DNA from: Candidatus Latescibacterota bacterium
GTDB lineage: Bacteria; Latescibacterota; UBA2968; SICM01
DNA length: 64,000 bases
NCBI GenBank assembly: GCA_965217865.1
Contig: CBDCJO010000002.1
Coordinates: forward strand, 1-64,000
Direction: 5' to 3'
How positions within the stretch are numbered: the first letter of the stretch is position 1; the number at the start of each line of letters is the position of its first letter. Both the position numbers and the translations under genes were made by a program. Shown here piece after piece: positions 20,929 through 60,100 of this stretch. The notes below the pieces were generated by a model, which worked only from the letters and a program-made list of their open reading frames with translations, was not told where the DNA came from and searched no databases.

Positions 20929-21444
20929 CTGCCCATCGCGATCACGCGTCGTCGGCTGCCTCGATTACGAGACCCTCGGTCGCCGCCAGTTCTTCCAATA
21001 TGGTCGCGATCTGGTCACGGGAGTAGCCGCAGGCGCGTTCCAGAACCCATGCGAGTTCAACGGTCCTCAATCTGCGCATGGTCAAACTTCAACTTGAAAG
21101 AGTTCGGTCTTCTCCAAAGGCCAGCATCGAACTCCCAAGCGCGAATGTAATCTTCAATGGCTCTCCATGCATCGTCTTTTCTCAGAGGGGCGTCAGCCCC
21201 CTCGTCGCCTGTGGTTCTTGTTCCGGGTTCCCGTTTCCGCTTGATTTGTCCACAGGCCAGTCGCTCCTACTGCTTGTTCTTTAACTGCTTGTAAGGTATG
21301 CGCTTTCACCGTGGAAAACTTCCCCGGATCGCCGGTATTTGTGAAAAAAACCGGCCACAGGAAGCCCCAGGAGCGCGTTTCAGCGGCTCAGCCTATAGTT
21401 GTAGTGTGAAAGACAAAAAGAGGCCATCAAAAGGGGCATTTCAG

Positions 21445-22947
21445 ATGAGAGAATATAGGAAGATTCTTCGGAACAGGGAAGCACGAATTGTCCGTCGTTT
21501 GCGTCGGAAGCAGTGGTGCAGTCAGGTCAAGCCTATGATGTCTGGGGGAAACATCCACTACGAGATAAGTGGGAAGGCCGAGGCGATCACGTGTGGGGGG
21601 ATCGGCGCGTTTCACCACATGGTCCGCAGGGTTGGGCTGGTGAAAGAGATTGACCGTCATCTTCATCTTTTGAAAGTGCATTTGCCCTATCACGAATCAG
21701 ACCACGTTCTGAACATCGCCTACAATGCGCTGGTTGGTGGTCAACGCCTTGAAGACATTGAGCTGCGCCGCCAGGATGCCACGTTCCTGAACGCTTTGGG
21801 CGCTCAGCGTCTCCCGGATCCGGCCACAGCAGGCGACTTTACACGTCGTTTCCGGCCATCGGATATCGAGACGTTGATGGATTGCATCAACCGGGTGCGC
21901 ACCCGGATCTGGAAAAAGCGCGCCAGGGGCGAACTCAAAGAAGCCCTCATCGACATCGACGGCACCCTGGCCACCACTCTCGGAGAACGCAAGCAGGGCA
22001 TGGCCCTGTCATACAACGGTATCTGGGGATACCATCCTCTCGTGGTCTCTCTGGCGAACACCAGGGAGGTGTTGTTTCTTGTGAATCGACCCGGCAATGT
22101 GCCCAGCCACGACGGTGCCGTAAAGTGGATCGATCGCGCCATCGCGCTGGTCGCCCCTTTCGCCAAACGCATCTGCCTGCGCGGAGACACCGGCTTCTCA
22201 CTCACCCGGCACTTCGATCGTTGGTCGGAAAAGGTCGACTTCGTCTTCGGCATGGATGCTTACAGAGGATTGGTCAAGATCGCCAAATCCCTGTCACAGA
22301 GCGATTGGGAGCCCTTTGAACGACAACCCAAATACCAGGTCAAAACCTCCCAGAGACAGAAACGCGAGAACGTGAAAGCCCGGATCATCCGGGAGCGCGG
22401 CTTCAAAAACATCCGACTTGCCAGTGAACGTGTTGCCGGGGTTTCGTATCGTCCTGCTCGATGCAGGAAGACCTGTCGACTCGTGATCCTCGAAAAGAAC
22501 CTGAGCGTCGAACGCGGCGAAAACGCCCTGTTCGATGACAAGCGCTATTTCTTCTACATTACCACCCGAAAAGATCTTGCGGCCGCGGAAATCGTGAGGC
22601 TGGCCAATCGACGGTGCGATCAGGAAAACGTGATTGAACAACTCAAGAACGGGGTCAACGCCATGCGGATGCCCGTCGACAACCTGATGAGCAACTGGGC
22701 TTACATGGTCATGACCGCCCTGGCGTGGAACCTCAAAGCCTGGTTCGCGTTGATGATCCGAAAGCGTGAGCGTCGCGATCAACTTCTGAGAATGGAGTTT
22801 CGCGCCTTCCTCCAGAATCTGATCTGGATCCCCTGCCAGATCGTGACCCGGGGAAGACAGATCATCTATCGTGTCTTGGGCTACAACCGGTGGATGACTG
22901 ACTTCTTCCCGGCCTGGAACAGAATCAGATGGCTCAAACCGGCTTGA
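21445..22947 (+). CDS. IS1380-family transposase (apparently intact)
   Basis: HLPYHESDHVLNIAYN, IDIDGT, GYHPL, LRGDTGF, RCDQENVIEQLKNG; right end near 23143-23162. Confidence 0.9.
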   Translation: MREYRKILRNREARIVRRLRRKQWCSQVKPMMSGGNIHYEISGKAEAITCGGIGAFHHMVRRVGLVKEIDRHLHLLKVHLPYHESDHVLNIAYNALVGGQRLEDIELRRQDATFLNALGAQRLPDPATAGDFTRRFRPSDIETLMDCINRVRTRIWKKRARGELKEALIDIDGTLATTLGERKQGMALSYNGIWGYHPLVVSLANTREVLFLVNRPGNVPSHDGAVKWIDRAIALVAPFAKRICLRGDTGFSLTRHFDRWSEKVDFVFGMDAYRGLVKIAKSLSQSDWEPFERQPKYQVKTSQRQKRENVKARIIRERGFKNIRLASERVAGVSYRPARCRKTCRLVILEKNLSVERGENALFDDKRYFFYITTRKDLAAAEIVRLANRRCDQENVIEQLKNGVNAMRMPVDNLMSNWAYMVMTALAWNLKAWFALMIRKRERRDQLLRMEFRAFLQNLIWIPCQIVTRGRQIIYRVLGYNRWMTDFFPAWNRIRWLKPA

Positions 22948-23267
22948 CTGCCATGTCAGCACCTGTCGTCGTAACATCACAGGGACAAGTCCGTCCACCC
23001 CGGCTAAAACACGTCCGCAAACTCAGTTAATTAGACAATCGCATGCCGAAACAATCACAAAAACAGCCCAGACATCATCTCAAACAAGTCACAAGTCTGA
23101 AATGCTCCGAAATCTTGTATAACACACCGCTCAACAAGCCTGTTCGCTTATTTTAGGACTAGTAGAGAAAGAGCTGGATCTGTCAATCCTGACGGAAGTT
23201 GCGGAGGGAAACGGCTGAGCCCAGCGCGTCGGCGCGAGGCGGTGGTGCACGTGCGCAAGAAGACTCC

Positions 23268-24026
23268 ATGTCCGATTGGTTGAAGCCTGTTCTGGATCCG
23301 TACGACCGCAAAGCGCGGCTCAGTCCTGCGCTGCTTTGCGGCTTGCCGCTTGTCGCGTCGATTGTCCTACTGATTCCTCAGCTCGGGCCGATCTGGGGTT
23401 CGATTGGCGTCGTCGTATATGGCGGAGGGTACATGTTGCTGATCCAGATCGGCCGGGATCTAGGTAAGGGCCTAGAGGAGCGGCTATTCCAATCGTGGGG
23501 TGGAAGGCCCTCTGCGGCCATGCTGCGACATGCGGATGGTCGATTGGAGAAGCCGACCAAGGAACGTTACCGGAGGTTTCTGAGCGAGGCTGTACCCGGC
23601 TTGCCGCTGGTGTCCGCGGAGGACGAGCGGGAGAATCCCGAGAAGGCGCTTGCGGGATATGAGAGCGCGAACCGATGGTTGCTCGAGCAGACGAGGGACC
23701 ACGCGCGATTCGCGCTGTTGTTCACGGAGAACGTCAACTATGGGTTTCGTCGAAACCTGTTAGGCCTGAAGCCGATTGCGTTGGGTGTGGACGCAATCGC
23801 ATTACTGATCATGTTCGGCGTGGCAAGTGGCTCTTGGACAGGTCAGTTCGCCAGCACGATTGAGGCCGTCGCACCGGAGTGGTGGGCGAGTCTGTCAATC
23901 ACAGCTGTGCACATGCTGGCGTTCGTGGTACTCATCCGGGCTAAATGGGTGCGAGCCGCAGCCGAGACGTACGCGCGGCAACTGCTGGCGGCGTGCGACT
24001 CACTTGAGAGCGCAAGGAACACATAG
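23268..24026 (+). CDS. multi-pass membrane protein (defence-island effector-like)
   Basis: DPYDRKARLSPALL..WGGRPS..ENVNYGFRRNL; about 4 hydrophobic segments; ATG at 23268. Confidence 0.7.
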   Translation: MSDWLKPVLDPYDRKARLSPALLCGLPLVASIVLLIPQLGPIWGSIGVVVYGGGYMLLIQIGRDLGKGLEERLFQSWGGRPSAAMLRHADGRLEKPTKERYRRFLSEAVPGLPLVSAEDERENPEKALAGYESANRWLLEQTRDHARFALLFTENVNYGFRRNLLGLKPIALGVDAIALLIMFGVASGSWTGQFASTIEAVAPEWWASLSITAVHMLAFVVLIRAKWVRAAAETYARQLLAACDSLESARNT

Positions 24027-24111: not shown

Positions 24112-24990
24112 GTGAGCATTGTGCACTCTTACGCCGTCGGGAGCGGCGACATGTTTTCAATCCGACATGACTCGGATAACTGCACGATCATTGATTGCAG
24201 CATTTCGAAGGACGATCAAGACTGTCTATTGGGGGAGATTGACAAGCAACGTAAAGGCAAGACAATCACGCGATTCATATCCACACATCCAGACCAAGAC
24301 CACCTAATGGGCCTGTCGGCACTGGACGACCATATTAAGATCTTGAACTTTTATGTAGTGAAGAACAATGCCACAAAGGACGACGAAACCGACGACTTCA
24401 AGCGCTACAAGAACCTACGGGACGGAGACAAGGCCTTTTACATCCATAAAGGATGTACCAGGAGGTGGATGGATCAGAGTAATGAGGAGCGCGGCTGTTC
24501 AGGCATCAACGTCTGGTGGCCTGTGACTTCTAACGAGGACTTCAAGCAGGCGCTGCAGGATGCGGCCGATGGCATGAGTCCGAACAACATCTCTCCCGTG
24601 ATTACCTATTCTCTCGAAAACGGTGTCAAGATGGCTTGGTTTGGAGATCTTGAGACGGAGTTCATGGAAAAGATCGCAGACGAGATTTCGTGGCCCGAGG
24701 TTGACATTGTGTTTGCACCACACCATGGACGGGATAGCGGCAAGATCCCTGCGTCGATTCTGAATCAGATGGATCCCAAGATTGTGGTGATTGGCGTGGC
24801 GCCGTCCAAGGACCTGGACTACTATCGGAACTACAACACAATTACCCAGAATTCTGCCGGCGTTATCTACTTCGAATGCGTTGCCTATTGGGTCCACATT
24901 TATGTTGGAAGCTCAACCTACAGCGTGGACTTTCTCGAAGACAAAGGAGCTAGTTCCTACAGCTACTACCTCGGGTCTCTCCCCGTATGA
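24112..24990 (+). CDS. ComEC/Rec2-like metallo-beta-lactamase-fold hydrolase
   Basis: VGSGD, IIDC, THPDQDH, FGDLE, APHHG. Confidence 0.85.
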   Translation: MSIVHSYAVGSGDMFSIRHDSDNCTIIDCSISKDDQDCLLGEIDKQRKGKTITRFISTHPDQDHLMGLSALDDHIKILNFYVVKNNATKDDETDDFKRYKNLRDGDKAFYIHKGCTRRWMDQSNEERGCSGINVWWPVTSNEDFKQALQDAADGMSPNNISPVITYSLENGVKMAWFGDLETEFMEKIADEISWPEVDIVFAPHHGRDSGKIPASILNQMDPKIVVIGVAPSKDLDYYRNYNTITQNSAGVIYFECVAYWVHIYVGSSTYSVDFLEDKGASSYSYYLGSLPV

Positions 24991-25505
24991 TAGTGGACAA
25001 AAATTAATGTCGCCGTCGAATCCTGTTCGGTAGCCAACATGGAACAGGCGAAGTCGCGAACGTCTAGTCCTCGTCGCCAGCCGACCGTGGCGACAGTGTA
25101 AACGTTCGGTAACCTTTCTAATGAGGCAACTTGACAAAGTGATAATGGACCAAACGTGTTTGGTCCATTCCTCAAGGGATGCTTCGTCTACGTCTGCGGT
25201 CTGAAGCCACGCGTCGAAGCCTCGATAGATGGCGACGACACCGCCATGAACGCCGTAGCCTTCTATCGCTAGACCCGAACGCCGAGCCGAACCCATGAAA
25301 CTCGCGGCTGCCAATGGCCGAGAAGAACTACCCATGGATAACCGAAGCGCTCAACAGCGGCAACGGATTCTTGAGGGAACGAGCGACCTCGCGCTTCCGC
25401 AGCTGCGATCGCAGTGCTGCGGAGAAGCAGCTGGGCCGTCCCGTCGCGGCCAATGAACAATGGCTGAAAGATTGAGGTCGGGCTGCATTCAGGTAAGGAG
25501 AGACC

Positions 25506-26903
25506 ATGGCACGCATCACCACTGAAGTAACCAGGGAGATAATCGAGGATTTCGCCAAGGAGATCCAGAGAAAGCGAACGCACACTGCTAAGCCGTCAAA
25601 GGAAGTCATCAATTTCCGAGACGATAAGCTCTCCGGCACCGAACGGGATGTGTGGAAGGTGCCCATAGATCTCCTGCGGTACCGTAAGGACAACGGACGG
25701 ATCGCGTCCGACGTACTTGACTACGAACGCAACGTCGCCCCCCTTAGCGAAAAAGATGACCAGGCCCAAGCCATAATCAGGGAATTTCTTGAGAAGAAGG
25801 ACCCGGAGCGCACAGCTGTTCTAAAGAGGTCAATCGCCCACGGGGGCCAGCAGCAACCGGCGATCATCACTTGTGACGGATTCCTCATCAACGGAAATAG
25901 ACGCAAGATGGTGATGGATTGGCTCCAGAAGGAGAATCCTAACGGAGAGATATTTCAATATATGAAAGCTGTCATCCTGCCAAGAGAGGATGAGGAAGGT
26001 GGGCCCCCCACCCTGGTGGAAATTGAAAAGATCGAGAATCGATACCAGCTGCAGAGCGATGGGAAGTCAGAGTACTACGGTTTCGATCGTGCCTTGTCGA
26101 TAAAACGAAAGATCGACCTCGGTTTCACACTTGAGGAACAATTGAAGGACGATCCTACTTATGCTAAAAAGGCAGACCTCAATCGGGCAGTTGCTGATTA
26201 CCAAAAAGAATACCTCGACCCCTTGACCTGCATCGATCGTTACCTACGGCAATTCAAACGGGAAGGCCTTTACCGAACTATCTCAACAGGCATCACAGAC
26301 TCAGAGGGTCGTTGGCAAGCCTTCATAGATTATAGCAATACATACAATCGCTACTTCATCGATCCCAAGCGTCGAATTGAAATAGGCATAGAGGATGACG
26401 AGATCGGTGAACTAGAGGAAGCCGCTTTCGATGTCATTCGTCTTCGAACAGTGCCCGACATGCCCAAGGTTCATGCCATCATGCGGGACCTGTGGAAGTA
26501 CTGCCGTACAGACGACGGCAAGAAGGCGATCAAGAAGATTGTGGAGGAAGTGGACCCTGTACTTTCGCCAGGCGAGCGTGTTGATTCAGACGGAAAAGAA
26601 CTATTACCGGATGCAGCTGATGCCAAGTGGGCAGCTAAGAACAAAGAGTCAATAATAAACAACTTGAAGAAGGCGTCCCGAAGTCACGAGAGTCTGAAGG
26701 CAAGAGAGACACCCATAGAGCTTCTTGAGGGAGCTTACAAGAAACTAACCCACGACAACATGGATCTTAGCGCTATCAACAATGCTGACCTGCCGAAGGC
26801 GCATCGAATTGTCGCAGACATTGGTAAGAGGGCGCAATCACTTGAGTCTGAGATATACGGTTATTCGAAGAACTACAGGAAGCTTACAAAGAAGAAAACA
26901 TGA
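25506..26903 (+). CDS. ParB/Sulfiredoxin-like N-terminal domain protein
   Basis: LRYRKDNGRI..GQQQPAIITCDGFLINGNRR; RBS AAGGAG. Confidence 0.75.
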   Translation: MARITTEVTREIIEDFAKEIQRKRTHTAKPSKEVINFRDDKLSGTERDVWKVPIDLLRYRKDNGRIASDVLDYERNVAPLSEKDDQAQAIIREFLEKKDPERTAVLKRSIAHGGQQQPAIITCDGFLINGNRRKMVMDWLQKENPNGEIFQYMKAVILPREDEEGGPPTLVEIEKIENRYQLQSDGKSEYYGFDRALSIKRKIDLGFTLEEQLKDDPTYAKKADLNRAVADYQKEYLDPLTCIDRYLRQFKREGLYRTISTGITDSEGRWQAFIDYSNTYNRYFIDPKRRIEIGIEDDEIGELEEAAFDVIRLRTVPDMPKVHAIMRDLWKYCRTDDGKKAIKKIVEEVDPVLSPGERVDSDGKELLPDAADAKWAAKNKESIINNLKKASRSHESLKARETPIELLEGAYKKLTHDNMDLSAINNADLPKAHRIVADIGKRAQSLESEIYGYSKNYRKLTKKKT

Positions 26904-28795
26904 TTCAGATCCTCACCGAGAATGACAGGCTGGTCCTGGACTGTGAAGAGGGTGACCTCGCCCCCCGTCATGCCAGCCAGTTGACATTTTGGGGATTCTC
27001 TTATGATCAAGCCGAGTCCCGCTACCTTGGCCCTCACGGTGATTTTAGAGATCTTGCAAGGAAAGTCACCAAGTATCTTGAACGCGATTCGCGTGAATAC
27101 GAAGTAGAAGCGCGCACAGAGGAGTTCCTAGCAGAACTGGCGGTTGTAGAATCAACCTACCTTACCGCAAGGCAGAGGGGACAGGATCTTAAAGACGGTA
27201 GTCTGGATGTACCAGAGGCTACTGACTTTCTCTCATTCCTTGAAGATCAAATCCCTCGCTCTCTCAAAGAGCATCAGTGTAAAGCAGCCCTCCATCTCCT
27301 ATCGGTGGTTAATGGGGCCAACTTCTCCGTTCCGGGAAGCGGAAAAACTACGGTTGTCCTCACTGTCTTCGAAAGGTTACGGCAGCAAGGGCAAGTTGAT
27401 TCGCTTTTTGTTGTTGGCCCTCCCTCGTGTTTCGGTCCCTGGAAAACTGAGTATCAGGATGTTCTCGGGGTAGCCCCTTCCCACGAGATTCTCGCCGGAG
27501 GCAATGTTGAGGTCCGCAGGATGAAATATTTGGTTAATCAGGAATCCGTGGCCGACCTATACTTGACCACCTTCCAGACACTTCAACGTGACTGGGAGCA
27601 GGTCCAAGTGCTATTCGAGCGTCAAGGAGTGAAGTTTTATTTGATAGTTGATGAAGCTCACTACGTGAAACAGCCTGGGGGAGCATGGGCAAGCGCTGTG
27701 CTCAATGTTGCCCGTCACGCATCCCGTCGCGCAGTCCTTACCGGGACTCCCTTTCCACAGAGTTTTTCAGATGCATTCAACCTCTTCGATGTCCTTTGGC
27801 CAGAGTCTACCCCTGTTCCTAATGAAAACCGTCATCGCATTGAGTTTTTGAGTCAGAAAAAACAATTCCAGGAGGCACAAACGTACCTGAACCACGCAAT
27901 TGGCCCGCTCTTCTATCGCGTCCGGAAATCCGACTTGGGGCTGGCCCCCCAGGTGTTTCATCCACCAATACAGGTCAGAATGAAGAAGCACGAAAAGAGG
28001 GTTTATGATTTGGTATTGGATAGAATAGCGGACATGTCATCATCAGACTACATGCGCGACATTGACCTTCTAATACGTCTGAGGAAGGGACGCATGATGA
28101 GAGTCCGCCAATGCCTCTCCTATCCCGCCTTGTTGGGAGGTGAAGTAACCGACTACAATGAGAATCTGCTGGAAGGTTCGATCTCTCTCAGCGACATCAT
28201 CAAGCATTACGACCAGCTGGAGACACCAAGCAAAGTAGAACATCTTGTCCAGCTCGTACAGGATCTTTACCAGCGCGGAGAAAAAGTCGTGATTTGGTCG
28301 AATTTCGTGCGAACACTGGAGATGCTCCGTGATACGCTCCAGCCGCTGACAGGCGTGAGGCTCATCTATGGTGCCACTCCAGTAGAGCGTTCCGGAATTG
28401 ACGAGGAACTCACCAGGGACGAAATCATCCGAGAGTTTGTGAACTCTGATAGCGGGATCGAGGTACTGCTCGCGAATCCAGCAGCTTGTGCAGAATCCAT
28501 ATCTCTCCACAAAACGTGCTCGAACGCGGTCTACTATGACTTATCCTATAACTGCGCACAGTACGTCCAGTCGCTTGATCGAATCCATCGGGTCGGGGGA
28601 TCTGAGGATAAGCCGGCGCATTACCATTTCCTCCAGTATGAGGACACGATTGATGCCGACATTCTCCAGAATGTCCAACGAAAAGCCCAACGTATGAACG
28701 ATATCATCGATCAAGAGTACGCGATTTACTCACTGGATATGTTTGGCGAGGACGACGAACTCCAAGCCTATGAGAGACTATTCCCCAAACGCTGA
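26900..28795 (+). CDS. SNF2-family DEAH helicase/translocase
   Basis: PGSGKT, DEAH, LTGTP, KVVIWS, QSLDRIHRVG; ATGA overlap with upstream gene. Confidence 0.9.
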   Translation: MIQILTENDRLVLDCEEGDLAPRHASQLTFWGFSYDQAESRYLGPHGDFRDLARKVTKYLERDSREYEVEARTEEFLAELAVVESTYLTARQRGQDLKDGSLDVPEATDFLSFLEDQIPRSLKEHQCKAALHLLSVVNGANFSVPGSGKTTVVLTVFERLRQQGQVDSLFVVGPPSCFGPWKTEYQDVLGVAPSHEILAGGNVEVRRMKYLVNQESVADLYLTTFQTLQRDWEQVQVLFERQGVKFYLIVDEAHYVKQPGGAWASAVLNVARHASRRAVLTGTPFPQSFSDAFNLFDVLWPESTPVPNENRHRIEFLSQKKQFQEAQTYLNHAIGPLFYRVRKSDLGLAPQVFHPPIQVRMKKHEKRVYDLVLDRIADMSSSDYMRDIDLLIRLRKGRMMRVRQCLSYPALLGGEVTDYNENLLEGSISLSDIIKHYDQLETPSKVEHLVQLVQDLYQRGEKVVIWSNFVRTLEMLRDTLQPLTGVRLIYGATPVERSGIDEELTRDEIIREFVNSDSGIEVLLANPAACAESISLHKTCSNAVYYDLSYNCAQYVQSLDRIHRVGGSEDKPAHYHFLQYEDTIDADILQNVQRKAQRMNDIIDQEYAIYSLDMFGEDDELQAYERLFPKR

Positions 28796-29753
28796 CGACT
28801 CATTCTCAGGACTCAAATGGAGCCAGGTATTGGCGCTGGTGTCTGTGCTGAGAAATGCCGAGTACACAAAAGCGGATCACATTGGGCGACTTTACCTTGA
28901 GAGAGCTCAGAACTTCGAAGAAACATTGACGTTTCTTTCTGCTGTCGCTGGCATTAGCGAAGATGGATCAAACACGATAGAGAGCAGCCTACCATCTTTT
29001 CTTGACGAGGCTGAGACTCAGTCTTGGATTCTGAGCTGCCTGTTCAACTCAGGCAACGTCTACCGCAATGGCATATATCCCTACCTTCAGAACTTCCATA
29101 TTGAGGGCGGTGAACCAAGGTACCATCCAGAGTTCTCTACTCGGCACTATGAGAGCAACGTCCGGAACTTCCTTATCGAACTTGGTGTTGTTAGCCACAA
29201 TGTGGAAGGTGACTACTACTACGTAACGCCAGGACACATCGGCCTCTATGTCGCGGCACAAGACAGCGGAAGAGGGATGTGGTCACCGTCTTCGAGAGCT
29301 GCAGTGCAGGCCGATAAAGAGTCATTAGGAACTGCTGCTGAAGAACTGATTCTGGAATACGAACGGGAACGTGTTGGCGAAGAGCATCAACGGGAGGTAC
29401 AGCATATCGCAATTGTGGATACTGCGGCAGGCTATGACATAAAGAGTGTGACGCTTGAGCAGTCAGGAACACTCACGCCGAGGTACATAGAAGTGAAGGC
29501 AGTTCCCCGGATCTCCCTGCGTTTCTACTGGACTCGGAACGAGGTCCTTACATCGCGAAGATTAGGGGAGTGGTACTATCTGTATCTTCTACCAATGAGA
29601 AGAGATGGCCAGTTTATCATGAACGAACTAACAATAATTCAGAATCCGGCCAACAAAGTGCTTGGTGAACCCGACACATGGGAAGTGGAACCAGAGGTGC
29701 AGCAGTGCAGCAGATGTCCGCGTTTTGACAGAGGTCACGGCGATGTCGCGTAG
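28770..29753 (+). CDS. DUF3883 (NOV-C) PD-(D/E)xK nuclease domain protein
   Basis: GTAAEELILEYERERV..AGYDIKS..YIEVK..FYWTRNE..YYLY. Confidence 0.85.
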   Translation: MRDYSPNADDSFSGLKWSQVLALVSVLRNAEYTKADHIGRLYLERAQNFEETLTFLSAVAGISEDGSNTIESSLPSFLDEAETQSWILSCLFNSGNVYRNGIYPYLQNFHIEGGEPRYHPEFSTRHYESNVRNFLIELGVVSHNVEGDYYYVTPGHIGLYVAAQDSGRGMWSPSSRAAVQADKESLGTAAEELILEYERERVGEEHQREVQHIAIVDTAAGYDIKSVTLEQSGTLTPRYIEVKAVPRISLRFYWTRNEVLTSRRLGEWYYLYLLPMRRDGQFIMNELTIIQNPANKVLGEPDTWEVEPEVQQCSRCPRFDRGHGDVA

Positions 29754-30741
29754 GGAATATGTGACTCCGACTCACGACGAGCAATCACTTAAGGCCAAGC
29801 CTACGCGCGCACCGTTTGGATACTACGGCGCCAAGCAGACGATTGCCCAGAAAATAATCAAGACTCTTCCCCCTCATAACGCCTGGGTTGAAGGATTCTG
29901 CGGATCTGCCGCCTTGACTCTGTGCAAGAAATCCGTGCCTATCGAAGTGATTAACGACAGAGACAAGCAGATAGTGAACCTGTTTTCTCAATTAAGGGAC
30001 AATGCTGAGGCTCTTTGCCGAGCTGTAGAGCTCACGCCTTACGCTCGAGAGGAATTCCTGCTTGCCCGCGATCATGTAATGAAAGAAAAACTGGCGGATA
30101 TAGACCCGCTCGAACAAGCTCGAAGGTTCTTAGTGGCTACAATGATGACAGTGAATGGAACTATAGGTACACGATCTGGTTGGTCTTATTCTCAGTCCTA
30201 CGCTCGAGGGGGACGCGAAGCAAGGGTCAACCGATGGTGCAATCTACCAGACAGACTTGAGAAGGTGGTCGAAAGACTACGTGGGATTAGGGTGGAAAAC
30301 CGTGATGCTCGGGAGTTGGTGGACATGTTTGGGGATAGGCCAGCCACACTTATGTATCTCGATCCGCCCTACTTTACAAAGAGAGGGCACGGTTACATCA
30401 TTGATGCGCGCGAAGAAGAATTCCATCAGAAGCTCCTGAAGAAGTGCCTCAAGGCCCGATGCATGCTACTGATCAGTGGGTACCAGAACAATCTATACGA
30501 CGAGCTACTTACATCCAAGCAAGGATGGAAAAAGACGAAGATCGAAACTACCACACGGGACACCACAGGCAAGGATTATTCGCGAACAGAAATCCTTTGG
30601 ATGAATCCTGTCTTCGTGAAGGCGAAGAAGTCAGGGAAACTTCCCCTAAGGCTTACCCGGCGCGAGAAGGAGGAGAGAAAAATCAATCCATCTCGCCCCG
30701 CTAACACTACCTCTAATACATTTCGTGGATCAGTTGCTTAG
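29743..30741 (+). CDS. D12-class N6-adenine DNA methyltransferase (Dam-like)
   Basis: FGYYGAK, VEGFCGS, EVIND, YLDPPY; overlaps the DUF3883 stop. Confidence 0.9.
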   Translation: MSRREYVTPTHDEQSLKAKPTRAPFGYYGAKQTIAQKIIKTLPPHNAWVEGFCGSAALTLCKKSVPIEVINDRDKQIVNLFSQLRDNAEALCRAVELTPYAREEFLLARDHVMKEKLADIDPLEQARRFLVATMMTVNGTIGTRSGWSYSQSYARGGREARVNRWCNLPDRLEKVVERLRGIRVENRDARELVDMFGDRPATLMYLDPPYFTKRGHGYIIDAREEEFHQKLLKKCLKARCMLLISGYQNNLYDELLTSKQGWKKTKIETTTRDTTGKDYSRTEILWMNPVFVKAKKSGKLPLRLTRREKEERKINPSRPANTTSNTFRGSVA

Positions 30742-37339: not shown

Positions 37340-37648
37340 ATGATTCCTGCCGTCACAGAGCATTCCGATGAATTGGAGCGTATCTGCCTCCGTTACAGTG
37401 TGCAGCGACTTGACCTGTTCGGCTCGGCTGCAACCGGCGAACACCATCTGGAGGGGAGTGATCTGGACTTCGTGGTCGAGTTTCAGCCGACGGCTTTCGC
37501 ATCTTATGCGGACGCCTACTTCGGTCTACTGGAGTCCCTGGAGCAGCTTTTCGAAAAGCCTGTGGACTTGGTGGTCGGGTCGGCCATCAGGAATCCTTTC
37601 TTCTTGCAGTCCGTCGAGGACACGAGGGTCCCGATCTATGAGGCTTGA
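37340..37648 (+). CDS. minimal nucleotidyltransferase (MNT) antitoxin
   Basis: LFGSAATGE..SDLDFVVEF..VDLV..IRNPFF. Confidence 0.9.
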   Translation: MIPAVTEHSDELERICLRYSVQRLDLFGSAATGEHHLEGSDLDFVVEFQPTAFASYADAYFGLLESLEQLFEKPVDLVVGSAIRNPFFLQSVEDTRVPIYEA

Positions 37649-37979
37649 GACCAAAAAATATCTGTATGACATGCAACGTGCCGCCGCTTTACTGAGAGAG
37701 TTCACCAGCAACAAGACTTTTGCGGATTATGAACGCGACGCCATGTTGCGGGCTGCGGTGGAGCGAGAGTTCGAAGTCATTGGCGAGGCCATGACACGAC
37801 TTGCCAGAGTCGACGAAGCGGTGGCGGCCCGTATCGACGGATATCAACGCATTATCGCCTTCCGCAATGTCCTGATTCACGGATACGCCGAGGTGGACAA
37901 CCACCTGGTGTGGGACGTGGTTGAGACCCGTCTCCCAACCCTCGACCGCGAGATCGATGCACTTCTGGAGGATGGATGA
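37638..37979 (+). CDS. HEPN/DUF86 RNase toxin
   Basis: ATG at 37638; AVEREFEVIGEA, RNVLIHGY (Rx4H). Confidence 0.9.
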   Translation: MRLETKKYLYDMQRAAALLREFTSNKTFADYERDAMLRAAVEREFEVIGEAMTRLARVDEAVAARIDGYQRIIAFRNVLIHGYAEVDNHLVWDVVETRLPTLDREIDALLEDG

Positions 37980-44746: not shown

Positions 44747-47557
44747 ATGCGCCTGTCGTGGAACGAGGTTCGCGCCCGCGCCGCCGCCTTCGCCGAGGAG
44801 TGGCGAGACGCGGCCTACGAGAAGGGCGAGACGCAAAGCTTCTATAACGACTTCTTCGAGATATTCGGGGTCCGGCGCCGAACCGTCGCGCGCTACGAGG
44901 AGCACGTAAAGCGGCTCGACAACACGCACGGTTACATTGATTTGTTCTGGCCCGGCGTCTTGATCGTCGAGCATAAGAGCGCCGGACGCGATCTCGCCCT
45001 CGCCTATGGTCAGGCCGGGGAATACTTCGACGCCCTGCCCGAGCAGAACCGGCCGCGCTACATTCTGGCAAGCGACTTCCAGACCTTCGAGCTTCACGAT
45101 CTCGACGAACGGGAGAAGGCCGCTTTCCCTCTCGTGGACCTGCCCGCCCACGTGGAGGCGTTCGGCTTCATCCTGGGCGTGCAGCGCCGGACCTTCCGCG
45201 ACCAGGACCCGACCAACATCAAGGCCGCCGAACTGGTCGGCAGGCTGCATGACGCTCTCGACGCGGCGGGCTACCGGGGCCACGACCTGGAGCGCTTCCT
45301 GGTGCGAATCGTTTTCTGCCTGTTCGCGGACGACACGGGCATATTCGAGCCGCGCGACATCTTCCTCGACTTCATCGAGACGCGCACGGGAGAGGACGGC
45401 GCCGATCTCGGGCCGTGGCTGTCGCAATTGTTTCAGGTTCTGGATACGCCGGAGGACGACCGCACCGCGACGCTCGACGAAAACCTAGCGCAGTTCCCCT
45501 ATGTCAACGGCGAATTGTTCGACGGGCCGCTACGCATTCCGTCCTTCGATGCGGCCATGCGCGGGGCGCTGCTGGATGTTTGCCGGTTCGACTGGTCGAA
45601 CATCTCGCCGGCGATCTTCGGGGCGCTGTTCCAGTCGGTCATGGACCCGAAGGAGCGCCGCGCCCAGGGCGCGCACTACACCACCGAGAAGAACATCCTG
45701 AAGGTGATCGAGCCGCTGTTCATGGACGACCTGCGGGCCGAATTCGCACGGCTCAAGTCCCGCAAGGACAACCGCCGTCTTGCCGAGCTTCGGCGGTTTC
45801 AGGAGAAGCTGGGGCGGATGCGGTTCTTCGACCCGGCCTGCGGTTGCGGCAACTTCCTCATCATCGCCTACCGGGAACTGCGGGCACTGGAAATCGACGT
45901 GCTCAAGGAACTTCATCCCGGCAAGCAGATGGACGCGCTGGCGCAAACCCTGTCGCGGATCGATGTCGATCAGTTCTACGGGATCGAGCTTGGCGAGTTC
46001 CCGGCCCGCATCGCGGAGACCGCGATGTGGATGATGGACCACATCATGAACAACCGGCTGAGCCTGGAGTTCGGTCAGACCTACGCCCGAATTCCTCTGG
46101 AGAAGTCGCCGCACATCGTCCATGGCGATGCGTTGGAAACCGATTGGGCGGACCTGCTGCCGCCGGAGGATTGCTCGTTCGTGTTCGGCAATCCGCCCTT
46201 CGTGGGCGCGAAGTATCAGACGGGGGACCAACGCGCCCAGGTGCGCGGGATCGCGGCGCTGGGCAAGAGCGGCGGCACGCTCGATTACGTCGCCGCGTGG
46301 TTCATCAAGGCGGGAGAGTATCTGCAGGGCAGCCGTGCCCAGATCGGCTTCGTCGCCACCAACTCGATCACGCAAGGCGAACAGGTCGCGCAACTGTGGC
46401 CTGTCCTGTTCGGGCGCTGCAAGCTGGAGGTGGCCTTCGCACACCGCACCTTCGCGTGGGGATCGGACGCGCGCGGCAAGGCGCATGTGCACGTCATTAT
46501 TCTCGGACTCGATCGGCGGGAGGATGTGCGAACGGAAAAGCGCCTGTTCGGCTATCCCGACATCAACGGCGAGCCGGAGGAGAGCCGCCATGCGGCGCTC
46601 TCGCCCTATCTGTTCGACGCGGGCGGACTTGCGGATCCGCATCTGACCGTGCGCGAGGAAAGCAAGCCGATCAACGGGATGGGGAAGCTGATTATCGGCT
46701 CCAAGCCAATCGACAACGGTCACTACATTTTCAAAGCGGAAGAACGTGCGGCATTTCTGGAAGCCGAGCCGAATGCCGCGCCTTTCCTGCGCCCTTTTGT
46801 TGGTGCCCGCGAATACCTGCAAGGCGGTGAGCGATGGATTCTTGCCCTGCATGACGCGCCGCCGGACGTGCTGGCACGGCTCCCGCGAGTTCGGGAACGT
46901 ATTGCCGCTGTCCGCTCATACCGAGATGCCAGCAGGAGCCGTCCCACGCAAAAGCTGGCGGAAACGCCCACGCTCTACCATGTGAACGTTCTCCCCACCT
47001 CACCATTTCTGGTGATTCCCGAGGTCAGCTCGGAGCGGCGAGAGTATGTGCCCATCGGCTGGCTCGCGCCGCCGGTGATCCCGAGCAACCTTGTTCGCGT
47101 CCTGGAAAATGCCACCCTTGCCGATTTCACACTGCTTACTTCCGCCATGCACATGGCTTGGCTCCGCCATGTTGGAGGGCGTCTGGAGAGCCGTTACCGC
47201 TACTCCATCGGCCTCGTCTACAACACCTTTCGGACCCCGCCCAGGACTTCAGACTGGTCGAAACTAGAGCCACTGGCGCAAGCCGTGCTCGATGCTCGAG
47301 CCGCTCATCCGGATGCTACGCTGGTCGACCTCTACGACCCCAATCTGATGCCGCCCAATTTGCGCCGAGCGCACCAACGACTCGATCGCGCCGTGGATCG
47401 ACTCTATCGACCGGCAGGTTTCGCTTCCGAGCGGGAACGTGTCGAGCATTTGTTCGGGCTCTATGAAAAGATGCTCGCACCACTGGAGGCCAGGATGAGC
47501 GCAAAACCGAGACGGCGGCGCGCAAGGCGTAAGCTAACAAGCAGAAGGACACGCTGA
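44747..47557 (+). CDS. MmeI-like type IIL restriction-modification enzyme (YeeA family)
   Basis: IDLFWPG..VEHKS nuclease, GAHYT, DPACGCGNFL, GNPPF, TNSITQGEQV, YRYS..VYNTF. Confidence 0.92.
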   Translation: MRLSWNEVRARAAAFAEEWRDAAYEKGETQSFYNDFFEIFGVRRRTVARYEEHVKRLDNTHGYIDLFWPGVLIVEHKSAGRDLALAYGQAGEYFDALPEQNRPRYILASDFQTFELHDLDEREKAAFPLVDLPAHVEAFGFILGVQRRTFRDQDPTNIKAAELVGRLHDALDAAGYRGHDLERFLVRIVFCLFADDTGIFEPRDIFLDFIETRTGEDGADLGPWLSQLFQVLDTPEDDRTATLDENLAQFPYVNGELFDGPLRIPSFDAAMRGALLDVCRFDWSNISPAIFGALFQSVMDPKERRAQGAHYTTEKNILKVIEPLFMDDLRAEFARLKSRKDNRRLAELRRFQEKLGRMRFFDPACGCGNFLIIAYRELRALEIDVLKELHPGKQMDALAQTLSRIDVDQFYGIELGEFPARIAETAMWMMDHIMNNRLSLEFGQTYARIPLEKSPHIVHGDALETDWADLLPPEDCSFVFGNPPFVGAKYQTGDQRAQVRGIAALGKSGGTLDYVAAWFIKAGEYLQGSRAQIGFVATNSITQGEQVAQLWPVLFGRCKLEVAFAHRTFAWGSDARGKAHVHVIILGLDRREDVRTEKRLFGYPDINGEPEESRHAALSPYLFDAGGLADPHLTVREESKPINGMGKLIIGSKPIDNGHYIFKAEERAAFLEAEPNAAPFLRPFVGAREYLQGGERWILALHDAPPDVLARLPRVRERIAAVRSYRDASRSRPTQKLAETPTLYHVNVLPTSPFLVIPEVSSERREYVPIGWLAPPVIPSNLVRVLENATLADFTLLTSAMHMAWLRHVGGRLESRYRYSIGLVYNTFRTPPRTSDWSKLEPLAQAVLDARAAHPDATLVDLYDPNLMPPNLRRAHQRLDRAVDRLYRPAGFASERERVEHLFGLYEKMLAPLEARMSAKPRRRRARRKLTSRRTR

Positions 47558-57125: not shown

Positions 57126-60100
57126 TCAATTTGATGACGCTTCCTTGCCGAAGTCGTTGGCAAAGATAAAAAAATCACCAAGCCCAATTATGTCATCCCC
57201 ATCCAGATCATACCGCGCTTCATATCCCTTATCGCCTTGACTTGATCCAAACTGTTCGGCAAACCGGAAAAAGTCGGCAAGGTCAACAGTACCATCGCCA
57301 TCAAAGTCGGAATTAGGGGCTTGAGGTGTGCTGTACGGCGACATATCCCACAGCAGAATCGTGCCATCACTTGACCCGGAAACGAGCATTGTCCCATCGG
57401 GGGAAAACGGCACGGAATGGACCCCGGCCCCAGATGTATGCCCCTTAAGGGTGGCGATATTTTCTCTTGTCGCCACGCCCCATAGCTTGACAACGCCATC
57501 ATCTGCCCCGGAAGCGAGCATCGTCCCATCGGGCGAAAACGACACCGATTGGACATACCCACCATGCCTGAGAGTGGCGATATTTTCTCTTGCCGCAACG
57601 TCCCACAGCCTGACCGTGCCATCCCCTGCTATGGAAGCGAAAGTCGTCCCATCGGGCGAAAACGACACCGATTGGACTGACCCACCATGCCTGAGAGTGG
57701 CGATATTTTCTCTTGCCGCAACGTCCCACAGCAGAATCCTGCCATCCCCTGACCCGGAAACGAGCATTGTCCCATCGGGGGAAAACGACACGGAAGTGAT
57801 CCAAGATGTATGCCCCTCAAGGGTGGCGATATTTTCGCCCGTCGCAACCTCCCACAGCCTGACCGTTCTATCATATGACCCTGAAGCGAGAATCGTCCCA
57901 TCGGGCGAAAACGATAAAAACTTGACCGAAGACGTATGCCCCTCAAAGGTGGCGATATTTTCGCCCGTCGCAACCTCCCACAACTTGGCCGTTCTATCAT
58001 TTGACCCTGAAGCGAGAATCGTCCCATCGGGCGAAAACGATACGGAACGGACTGACCCACCATGCCTGAGAGTGGCGATATTTTCGCCCGTCGCAACCTC
58101 CCACAACTTGGCCGTTCTATCATTTGACCCTGAAGCGAGAATCGTCCCATCGGGCGAAAACGATACGGAACGGACTGACCCACCATGCCTGAGAGTGGCG
58201 ATATTTTCTCTTGCCGCAACGTCCCACAGCAGAATCCTGTCATTCCATGACCCGATAGCGAGGATCGTCCCATCGGGCGAAAACGATACGGAACGGACCC
58301 AAGACGTATGCCCCTCCAGGGCAACAGCATTTCCCGTCGCCACGTCCCACAGCAGAATCCTGTCCTTCCCTGACCTGGAAGCGAGCATCGTCCCATCGGG
58401 CGAGAACGATACGGAACGGACCCAAGACGTATGCCCCTCCAGGGTGGCGATATTCGTGCCCGTCGCAACGTCCCACAGCTTGACCGTCCCACCTGCCCCG
58501 AAAGCGAGGGTCGTCCCATCGGGCGAAAACAACACCGAATTGACCTGACGCGTATGCCCTTCGAGGGTGGCGATATTTTCTCTTGCCGCAACGTCCCACA
58601 GCCTGACCGTGCCATCCCATGATCCGGAAGCGAGCATCGTCCCATCGGGCGAAAACGATACGGACCTGATCCTATCCGTATGCCCCTCCAGGGTGGCGAT
58701 ATTCGTGCCCGTCGCAACGTCCCACAGCTTGACCGTGCTATCATTCCACGGCACCGAAGCGAGGATCGTCCCATCGGGCGAAAACGATACGGACTGGACC
58801 ACATCCGTATGCCCCTCCAGGGTGGCGATATTTTCGCCCGTCGCAACCTCCCACAGCCTGACCGTTCTATCATTTGATCCGGAAGCGAGCATCGTCCCAT
58901 CGGGCGAAAACGACACCGAATTGACCTGACGCGTATGCCCCTCAAGGGTGGCGATATTTTCGCCCGTCGCAACCTCCCACAGCTTGACCGTGCTATCCCC
59001 TGACCCGGAAGCGAGGATCGTCCCATCGGGTGAAAACGACACCGAATGGACCCAAGACGCAGTGGGTAGCAGCGCGAGGGCACGAGCCGTCGCCACATCG
59101 TAAAGCCAGATGCCAACGCCACTTGCCACAGCGAGGCCTTGACCATCCGGTGAAAGGGCAACCGCCCTGTCGCTTTGACCGAGGCGTCCTTTTCCCAGGC
59201 GAAAGATTGCACCATCGGGTACATGCCACGTCCGATAATCCCGCATGCTCGGCATGGCAGGCGTTCCAACGCCCACCGCATTAAACGTCACCCGCTCAAA
59301 CCCGGCAACCCTCACCTCGACAGTGTTTGTTCCCGGATTGGGACCAAGGGTAAGGATACGCTCTGCCCGGCCGTTGGCATCGGTCGTTGCCTTATCAACA
59401 GTGAACCTTTCGCTGAGCCGCCCCTCGCCTGCGGTGACCGTAAACGTGACTTGCGCACCCGGTAAGGGATTATCATACTGATCTCTCACTTCAACTGACA
59501 AGGGGTTCGCCAACGCGGCACCGGGCATGCCCTGCTGGTTATCGTCGGAGATTTTCACCAGCATTCGTGGACGGGGCCGCGTCCACGCAGACATATCCCA
59601 CAGCAGAATCGTGCCATCATCCAATCGCACCTCTGACCCGGAAGCGAGCATCGTCCCATCGGGGGAAAACGACACCGAATAGACCGGTCCCGTATGCCAG
59701 ATAGTGGCGATATTTTCGCCCGTCGCAACGTCCCACAGATTGACCGTTTTATCCCATGACCCGGAAGCGAGCATCGTCCCATCGGGCGAAAACGACACCG
59801 AATTGACCTGACGCGTATGCCCCTCAAGGGTGGCGATATTTTCGCCCGTCGCAACCTCCCACAGCCTGACCGTTCTATCATATGACCCTGAAGCGAGGGT
59901 CGTCCCATCGGGGGAAAACGACACCGAACTGACCGCCACATCCTTAAGCGTGGCGATATTCGTGCCCGTTGCAACGTCCCACAGATTGACCGTTCTATCA
60001 TGTGACCCGGAAGCGAGGGTCGTCCCATCGGGGGAAAACGATACGGACCTGATCCAATTCGTATGCCCCTCCAGGGTGGCGATATTTTCGCCCGTCGCAA

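Follow-up and report, generated by a model that had tools for sequence, protein, structure and literature searches.

The closest described system is AbiR (abiRa/b/c plus M.LlaKR2I, from Lactococcus lactis pKR223). Its description dates to 2000-2006. The passages of a 2026 review on which we draw present it as a ParB-like subunit together with a nuclease-SNF2 subunit, the system as a whole requiring a methylase, give 5K5D as the best PDB match of AbiRb, list AbiR among the abortive infection (Abi) systems, with an effect of lowering phage DNA replication and with toxicity when the methylase is missing, and still call unclear how the parts give resistance (PMC13064643). Operons of SAR11 with AbiRb- and AbiRc-like genes, lacking AbiRa and with an AbiRc without its terminal domain, have also been noted and their function left open; the available passages of that paper mention no nuclease or methylase partner, and we liken these operons to our locus by description only (PMC13712998). 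As far as the passages of these two sources go, they are precedents that overturn the claim of the first-pass annotation that the locus matches nothing described. The literature passages found give no account of the four-gene cassette itself, and an earlier description may stand in the primary AbiR papers. A further point of comparison is HmaA, in which DUF3883 fused to SNF2 is, in the passages cited, a nickase required for defence (PMC11232893); a DUF3883-SNF2 fusion appears also in PMC3710099.

The locus lies in a window of 64,000 nucleotides, the whole stretch of DNA analysed, from a Candidatus Latescibacterota bacterium. Four uninterrupted reading frames, all on the forward strand and each overlapping its neighbour, occupy 25506-26903, 26900-28795, 28743-29753 and 29662-30741. 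Gene A (25506..26903, 465 aa, ParB/Noc-like and AbiRb-like by predicted fold, profile and invariant residues) follows a putative ribosome-binding site (AGGTAAGGAG, 25491..25500, forward strand) and overlaps gene B by the ATGA at 26900-26903. Gene B (26900..28795, 631 aa) encodes an SNF2-family ATPase resembling the core of AbiRc without its PLD domain. The frames of genes C and D are open from 28743 and 29662, and the sequence and the starts of homologous ORFs favour ATG 28770 and ATG 29743; gene C (28770..29753) would then carry a variable N-terminal domain and a NOV_C/DUF3883 PD-(D/E)xK nuclease domain, and gene D (29743..30741) encodes a D12-class N6-adenine DNA methyltransferase. Coordinates, a motif check and Pfam all bear out the earlier description of four overlapping, intact ORFs with the named motifs. 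The accompanying remark that most genes nearby are broken holds in part: the 20-36 kb flanks contain IS copies and dispersed repeats, but the window contains long intact genes too, among them those for a WD40 protein, MmeI and an RND pump. Between 25441 and 28073 there are 0 differences to the contigs of runs X1 and X2. Across 28044-30695 most contigs track a frameshifted second copy, placed elsewhere in the genome and at about twice the depth; for the window copy, the support at its two indel sites is the agreement of its frames with full-length homologs. A promoter and terminator scan of the cassette gave hits at chance level only. An upstream pair of a TM and a metallo-beta-lactamase gene was ruled out as a member of the cassette, as it does not recur beside relatives.

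The comparison with AbiR rests first on genes A and B. Gene B has the Pfam domains SNF2-rel_dom and Helicase_C, with PGSGKT at 145-150, DEAH at 251-254 and motif VI, and its catalytic motifs are invariant in 77/77 sequences. It scores 151-216 bits against eight plasmid SNF2 partners, compared with 74 bits for the other SNF2 protein of the genome (the only one found by tblastn), and shares the signatures ANFSVPG[SA]GKT and ES[IV]SLH with the PLD-SNF2 proteins. Where PLD-SNF2 genes stand beside dcm/Sau3AI genes, their ParB partners are matched by gene A with profile E values of 3e-28 to 4e-19, at 24-33% similarity, mostly within residues 15-240. Thus A and B have homologs in plasmid loci of AbiR anatomy, a comparison made by sequence with look-alike loci and the review rather than with named AbiR sequences; in the same sense an SNF2 protein of the AbiRc kind lies beside a ParB gene here, judged on the look-alikes and not named AbiRc. 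A linked methylase, as in AbiR, is supplied by gene D. PADLOC returned no match to an AbiR model, look-alike loci included.

The two systems have in common a ParB-like subunit with an SNF2 ATPase after it, a nuclease domain and, for the cassette presumably, dependence on a methylase, but differ in three respects. AbiR has a sigma-70-like AbiRa, of which the cassette has no counterpart: an AbiRa-like candidate (L042, used as a single-sequence query that distant forms may escape) had no match in the genome and none among the loci of the close clade, and no AbiRa-like or restriction-fold partner gene is conserved beside close-clade cassettes. The nuclease of AbiR is a PLD domain fused to SNF2, whereas that of the cassette is the separate DUF3883 gene C; gene B has no PLD domain in Pfam, and a PLD profile search of the genome was also empty. 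Finally, the AbiR methylase belongs to a separate R-M pair, while the cassette has its own D12 adenine enzyme within the operon. The cassette is likely a stripped-down relative of lactococcal AbiR.

Gene A consists of an N-terminal nucleotide-binding domain with GNRR (G130-N131-R132-R133), a helix-turn-helix region and C-terminal helices. Its predicted structure (pLDDT 86) gives Noc/ParB as the best Foldseek matches at E 3e-3, none reaching E<=0.001, and 5k5d, the match reported for AbiRb, as the top VIA match (Z 9.0, rmsd 3.9, 209 aligned). The profile of gene A aligns to chromosomal ParB over residues 43-261 with a probability of 92% and E 6.7e-7 (reversed control 0.14%), and this alignment runs from the ParB-N motifs on through the helix-turn-helix. 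With the close clade alone the probability drops to 52%, and the helix-turn-helix of the clade carries an insertion. Residues N63, R65, Q115, G125, G130-R133 and E177 are invariant in 47/47 sequences. No model of PADLOC 2.0, NCBIfam or Pfam matches the protein, and sequence searches against the PDB gave nothing meaningful. A 902-aa homolog in one locus (L028) was dismissed as a chance upstream extension. Compared with the clamps ParB, Spo0J, Noc and KorB, gene A has the same fold and motif order, but GNRR for GERR, insertions, a longer C-terminal part and no ParA. The first-pass annotation had called it a nucleotide-sensing ParB-like subunit; the ParB fold stands, but 'nucleotide-gated DNA binder' is the better description of its putative role, because the alignment to true ParB extends through the helix-turn-helix. 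By analogy with ParB, the nucleotide would be CTP.

The catalytic residues of gene C are intact. Its NOV_C domain (PF13020, DUF3883) is found by Pfam at E 7e-13, the catalytic motif is D232..E250-V-K252, and E200, D232, E250, K252 and E267 are 100% conserved across 93 sequences; an Atlas look-up of the N-terminal part gave scores all below 0.9. Gene D matches MethyltransfD12 (PF02086) at E 1.5e-17 and PADLOC MTase_II at E 5e-55, has DPPY, and is a distant match to DpnM (2dpm, E 1e-6). The methylase associated with AbiR is a C5 enzyme acting at GATC. As a common target GATC was rejected, since gene D lacks the Dam/DpnM recognition loop and GATC is undepleted in D12 cassettes (O/E 0.95); the O/E of N6_N4 cassettes is 0.71, that of flanks 0.82. 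A codon-shuffle avoidance test of the cassettes showed no clear target site among the palindromes tested. The target-recognition region of gene D is conserved across 50 relatives, and because it stays so alongside each kind of effector (C, HNH or nucleosidase), gene C is unlikely to set specificity.

Other known systems share parts of this architecture. Hma (HmaABC) likewise joins an SNF2 helicase to a DUF3883/NOV_C-type nuclease, but by fusion, and with a DUF499 ATPase rather than a ParB protein as partner; gene B matches HmaA over 457-596 only (E 3e-8), and neither a DUF499 ATPase nor an SNF2-nuclease fusion is present in the cassette or conserved beside its relatives, as would be expected of Hma or a DUF499 BREX-related system. 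PD-lambda-5 resembles it in being compact and R-M-like and in having a methylase of D12 type (gene D vs PD-Lambda-5_B, E 7e-18), but has two genes, no SNF2 and no DUF3883; gene A itself has no match there, while one relative of 41 weakly matches PD-Lambda-5_A at the ParB motif region (E 0.002). A Type II R-M system, a stand-alone endonuclease plus methylase with no motor, does not describe the loci found through gene A, in which C is replaceable and always follows the A-B core. No full-length match to a core subunit of Type I/III R-M, BREX, DISARM or Zorya was found, and gene A matched none of them at all; gene B matches DrmD and ZorD partially and far under the cutoff (54/610 and 26/1500 bits). 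SspE and GmrSD combine a ParB-fold NTPase with HNH, a design paralleled by the HNH-gene A fusions of relatives; neither is known to have an SNF2 partner.

To see which genes belong together we compared relatives recruited through gene A, so that C-D pairs without it are outside the scope. Gene B adjoins A in 31/33 GTDB loci and in 63/64 of the metagenome loci with room, the latter from the best 80 of 504 relatives. For the remaining counts we left out loci with less than 3.9 kb downstream of A (2/34 GTDB, and 35/80 of the best 80 of 504 metagenome relatives) and three without gene B (L032, L034 and L072). Where A and B are both present and the downstream flank reaches 3.9 kb, a methylase lies nearby in 30/30 GTDB and 44/44 metagenome loci (metagenome: best 80 of 504), compared with 316/6407 same-size windows of this genome (4.9%); the loci are related to one another and not independent. 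The methylase is thus co-conserved with the other genes in 74/74 close-relative loci, which together with the fold of gene A supports the earlier reading of a methylation-linked, R-M-like module with a ParB-fold subunit; the refuting condition named in the first-pass annotation, a methylase that does not accompany the other genes, did not hold. Of these 74 loci, whose metagenome part is drawn from the best 80 of 504, 46 have a D12 and 28 an N6_N4 methylase. Gene C is present in 62, B and C being separate genes in relatives, and the other 12 have HNH fused to A (10), an upstream nucleosidase (1, L109) or an unknown gene (1, L117); C occurs together with HNH or PLD in no relative examined. The one N6_N4 member examined, in L074, carries SPPY and most resembles M.PvuII. 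The A-B pair is therefore the constant core. Around it methylases of m6A and m4C type replace one another, as do the effectors DUF3883, HNH-A and nucleosidase. No extra conserved neighbour was found in the close clade, the largest cluster comprising 5 loci.

The spread of the cassette is patchy (5/168 genomes of the phylum, hits under about 11 phylum labels), and its GC content is about 50% vs 55%. Relatives on plasmids and prophages, the IS-rich surroundings and the ParB fold of gene A would also suit a module without a defence role, either a selfish addiction module or one that helps a mobile element to partition or segregate, and that post-segregational toxicity maintains. We consider this very improbable: neither ParA nor any other conserved neighbour accompanies the close clade, the genome has its own chromosomal ParB, and the neighbours of relatives include the defence genes DarT, AbiEii, Shedu and HNH nucleases.

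We think it somewhat more probable than not that the four genes, as one conserved cassette, form an AbiR-like, energy-driven restriction system that marks self and cuts unmarked DNA. Host DNA is likely marked by gene D, through methylation at a short site. Where that site is unmethylated, on DNA entering the cell, the ParB-like A likely binds it as a clamp gated by a nucleotide; the SNF2 motor B likely moves along or remodels the bound DNA, and nuclease C would then cut it. For the cassette itself we infer the anti-phage role, the site-reading subunit, the nucleotide, complex formation and cleavage.

The same parts could instead serve as a guard, in which A and B sense phage DNA replication or lost host methylation and an effector kills or arrests the infected cell. 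The cited passages on AbiR, an Abi system that lowers phage DNA replication and is toxic without methylase (PMC13064643), fit such a role, as do non-DNase effectors (L109 and L121 have an upstream nucleosidase gene, and in L153 a HEPN domain is fused to an A homolog) and distant loci in which the pair sits behind a complete Type III or Type II R-M system, like a back-up. We nevertheless regard it as rather unlikely, since the close clade has the methylase inside the cassette and no other conserved restriction enzyme, and the effector has a DNase domain in 72/74 loci (metagenome: best 80 of 504). A separate observation against a restriction reading is that AbiR is classed as abortive infection and that nucleosidase and HEPN variants better suit cell suicide.

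Within the restriction reading, the target site is probably read by gene A, with B a less likely reader, because no AbiRa-like or restriction-fold partner is conserved in the clade. Residues 161-280 of A are conserved (0.53-0.78), and residues 1-120 of B are not (0.33-0.45). The methylase reads the site in Type III and BREX systems, and here too the methylase or B could do so, with A as a nucleotide switch or scaffold only. Pointing that way are the close-clade helix-turn-helix, which carries an insertion and aligns poorly to ParB, and distant clades that keep a separate candidate reader. In 17 prophage loci this is an upstream gene with a restriction fold, and in further loci it is a Sau3AI/MutH-like or sigma-like gene. 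In addition, the A-B pair comes after Type III mod-res in 7 loci. We judge this alternative improbable. Beside closely related cores two unrelated methylase classes interchange, and they do so on both strands and both sides, so a fixed contact with the methylase is hard to reconcile with the loci; the extra N-terminal domain of B is also poorly conserved. Specifically, the class switches between closely related B proteins (L096, L098 and L112); the gene B tree has no outgroup, SH-aLRT support only and long branches.

Returning to gene A as the reader, we tentatively propose that a ParB clamp could be the recognition unit of restriction: it would read an unmethylated site in parS-like fashion, close in a CTP-dependent manner and, assisted by SNF2, license any effector, with m6A or m4C shielding self, and the AbiR family would have its minimal form in this clade. 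A wide family is built on the invariant ParB-SNF2 pair, and the versions of PADLOC, NCBIfam and Pfam searched here miss it through gene A. Because it encodes its methylase itself and its nuclease as a gene apart, with no further subunit, the cassette offers a small, self-contained test case for AbiR. If gene A is indeed a CTP-gated, methylation-sensitive clamp, it would represent a new recognition mechanism for restriction biology.

The four-gene cassette is real, intact as assembled and conserved. All of the uninterrupted, overlapping frames claimed by the first-pass annotation are present on the + strand at 25506-30741 and open throughout: A (25506-26903, 465 aa), B (26900-28795, 631 aa), C (28743-29753) and D (29662-30741). 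A strong ribosome-binding site is predicted from the sequence upstream of A, the A/B overlap is ATGA, and translation probably begins at ATG 28770 for C and at ATG 29743 for D, each inside the end of the preceding gene. Pfam assigns no family to A and agrees with the identities proposed for the others, i.e., SNF2 for B, NOV_C/DUF3883 for C and D12 methylase for D. GC content is about 50% in the cassette and 55% in the genome.

A duplicate of 28044-30695 (99.1%) lies at C2:708317-705664 of the source genome and includes neither A nor the 5' portion of B. It differs from the window by 22 substitutions and two single-base insertions, which frameshift C and D. The two copies differ at 11 amino-acid positions. 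At 5 of these the window has the residue seen in two or more of three close homologs (once in two of the three, the residue being V); at no position does a close homolog have the residue of the duplicate. Contigs of runs X1 and X2 are identical to the window over 25441-28073. The duplicated part has approximately twofold depth and the majority of contigs there carry the broken-copy sequence, so the two indel sites of the window copy are backed by homologs and not by independent contigs; in run X7 the window alleles are present in part of the duplicated stretch.

The window is defence-rich, since it also holds an intact MmeI-type IIG restriction-methylase (44747-47557, +) and a HepT-like RNase toxin gene (37368-37979, +). 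Upstream of the cassette, a + strand pair encoding a membrane protein with no family match (23199-24026) and a metallo-beta-lactamase-fold protein (24112-24990) is probably a separate candidate defence system; the latter protein matches the PADLOC candidate PDC-M48B (E 4e-136), and fragments of the pair are duplicated at other genome sites. A DDE transposase (DDE_Tnp_1_4; 21298-22947, +) belongs to an element with more than 20 near-full genome copies of about 99% identity, and 57126-61706 (-) encodes a protein of 1526 aa that contains about 21 WD40 repeats.

The ParB-like nature proposed for A holds up in profile comparison. Relatives of A number 1516 among 7991 candidates (912 among 50%-identity representatives), and a profile built from 47 diverse relatives matches one of 27 chromosomal ParBs across residues 43-261 (probability 92%, E 6.7e-7; reversed control 0.14%). 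The probability falls to 52% when only the close clade is used. The alignment pairs LINGNRR with LIAGERR and ENRYQ with ENIQR and extends into the helix-turn-helix. For the confident AlphaFold model (pLDDT 86), the top Foldseek matches are Noc, pNOB8 ParB, ParB and KorB, none at E<=0.001. VIA-align places 5k5d first (Z 9.0, rmsd 3.9, 209 residues), then PadC, KorB and sulfiredoxin; its Z values are middling, and the top six entries are all of ParB/Srx type, where we take PadC and the serine kinase to be family members. ParB uses CTP, and it is tentatively suggested, with some doubt, that A could be a methylation-sensitive ParB clamp.

The methylase, whose conservation with the other genes had been set beforehand as a test, lies nearby in every relative with A, B and at least 3.9 kb downstream (30/30 GTDB and 44/44 metagenome loci), compared with 316 of 6407 equal-size windows of the source genome. 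Among the loci compared (34 from GTDB and, from metagenomes, the best 80 of 504 relatives), B directly follows A in 31/33 and 63/64, respectively, of those with room. These counts are not independent events, because the loci share kinship. Within the phylum, 5 of 168 genomes carry the cassette, and it occurs under about 11 phylum labels. A defence role is probable, and a selfish module without one very improbable.

The methylase and the effector are both exchanged. The 74 methylases are D12 in 46 loci and N6_N4 in 28 (that of L074 has an SPPY motif and M.PvuII as nearest relative), their side and strand vary, and their class differs among closely related B proteins (L096/L098/L112, also L093; tree without outgroup, changes not formally counted). 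C is found in 62/74 loci, with E200, D232, E250, K252 and E267 invariant across 93 sequences. Where C is absent, 10 loci carry A as a fusion with an HNH domain, L109 (likewise L121, outside the 74) has an upstream nucleosidase gene, and L117 has a 297-aa gene of no known family in the effector slot (L117:7-900); no compared locus has two of the nucleases together. The D12 target-recognition region shows a single pattern regardless of effector. We also note that the D12 methylase of L117 (L117:4368-5702) is a fusion with DUF1508 repeats, and that L095 seemingly has two tandem cassettes.

Because C is replaceable, the methylase recognition region constant and unrelated methylases interchangeable, the reader of the site is most simply A or B, and conservation of A 161-280 but not of the B N-terminal domain favours A. 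We lean toward a mechanism in which D would mark sites on host DNA, A, acting as a nucleotide-gated clamp, would bind a site that is unmarked, B would spend ATP on movement or remodelling, and C would make the cut. Reading by a subunit other than A is quite improbable. Distant clades have an additional candidate reader (in 17 prophage loci an upstream gene with a restriction fold; in others Sau3AI/MutH-like, Type III res or sigma-like genes). The close clade has no extra conserved candidate, the largest neighbour cluster being 5 loci. An avoidance test for the target site was null, and GATC was not favoured. Elsewhere in the genome (L164, C2:3777856-3778686), a member of the relatives' N6_N4 methylase subfamily (E 3e-127) is accompanied by neither A nor B and precedes a frameshifted gene resembling, by eye, a Type II endonuclease; the specificity of this methylase could point to the cassette target.

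PADLOC, the check originally proposed, and NCBIfam gave zero matches for A and matched B in part only. The claim that the cassette resembles no described system is not supported: plasmid loci with the anatomy of AbiR are homologous to A and B. The four-gene form was not found described in the literature searched (most subscription journals lie outside its coverage), nor in the available portions of PMC9519451, bioRxiv 2024.02.29.582594, PMC11381338, PMC6458302, PMC12839542, PMC3710099, PMC10853773, PMC12278908 and PMC11232893.

A matched 21 plasmid records at 24-34% identity, and an SNF2 gene adjoins the A-like gene in 8/8 plasmid loci compared. Matches of the A profile to these partners have E values from 3e-28 to 2e-17; B shares a motif signature with their SNF2s and scores 151-216 bits against them, versus 74 bits against the sole other SNF2 found by tblastn in the source genome. 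On plasmids the pair lies downstream of Type III mod-res (L035, L037), behind a sigma-like gene (L042) or together with DUF3883 (L038), and at L036 and L039-L041 a PLD-SNF2 fusion lies near dcm, in some cases also near Sau3AI-like genes. Prophage loci include an A-B-C form with dcm, and L165 has every AbiR-like part, interrupted by a dcm region. At L035, L037, L148-L151 and L154, which are plasmids of lactic acid bacteria or related viral contigs, the pair comes immediately after a complete set of Type III mod-res genes, and no nuclease of its own was detected. Two A homologs (L153:7494-12145, L155:4928-8396) accompany a sigma-70 r4/RNAP alpha-CTD protein with no adjoining SNF2, the former bearing an N-terminal Swt1-like HEPN domain.

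Homology to lactococcal AbiR rests on these look-alike plasmid loci, AbiR itself being compared by its published description; its LlaKR2I methylase is presumably of C5 type, for GATC. According to a 2026 review, AbiRa resembles sigma-70 and AbiRb ParB (PDB 5K5D), AbiRc combines a nuclease with an Snf2 ATPase, and the system requires the LlaKR2I methylase, in whose absence it is toxic (PMC13064643). Abortive infection, or the guarding of methylation, is an unlikely role for the cassette compared with marking and cutting. An AbiRb/c-like operon without AbiRa occurs in SAR11, its function left open by the authors (PMC13712998). The cassette would probably work like an AbiR-type system, but it fails two AbiR features: it has no AbiRa, and its B lacks the PLD nuclease that is fused to SNF2 in AbiR-like loci.
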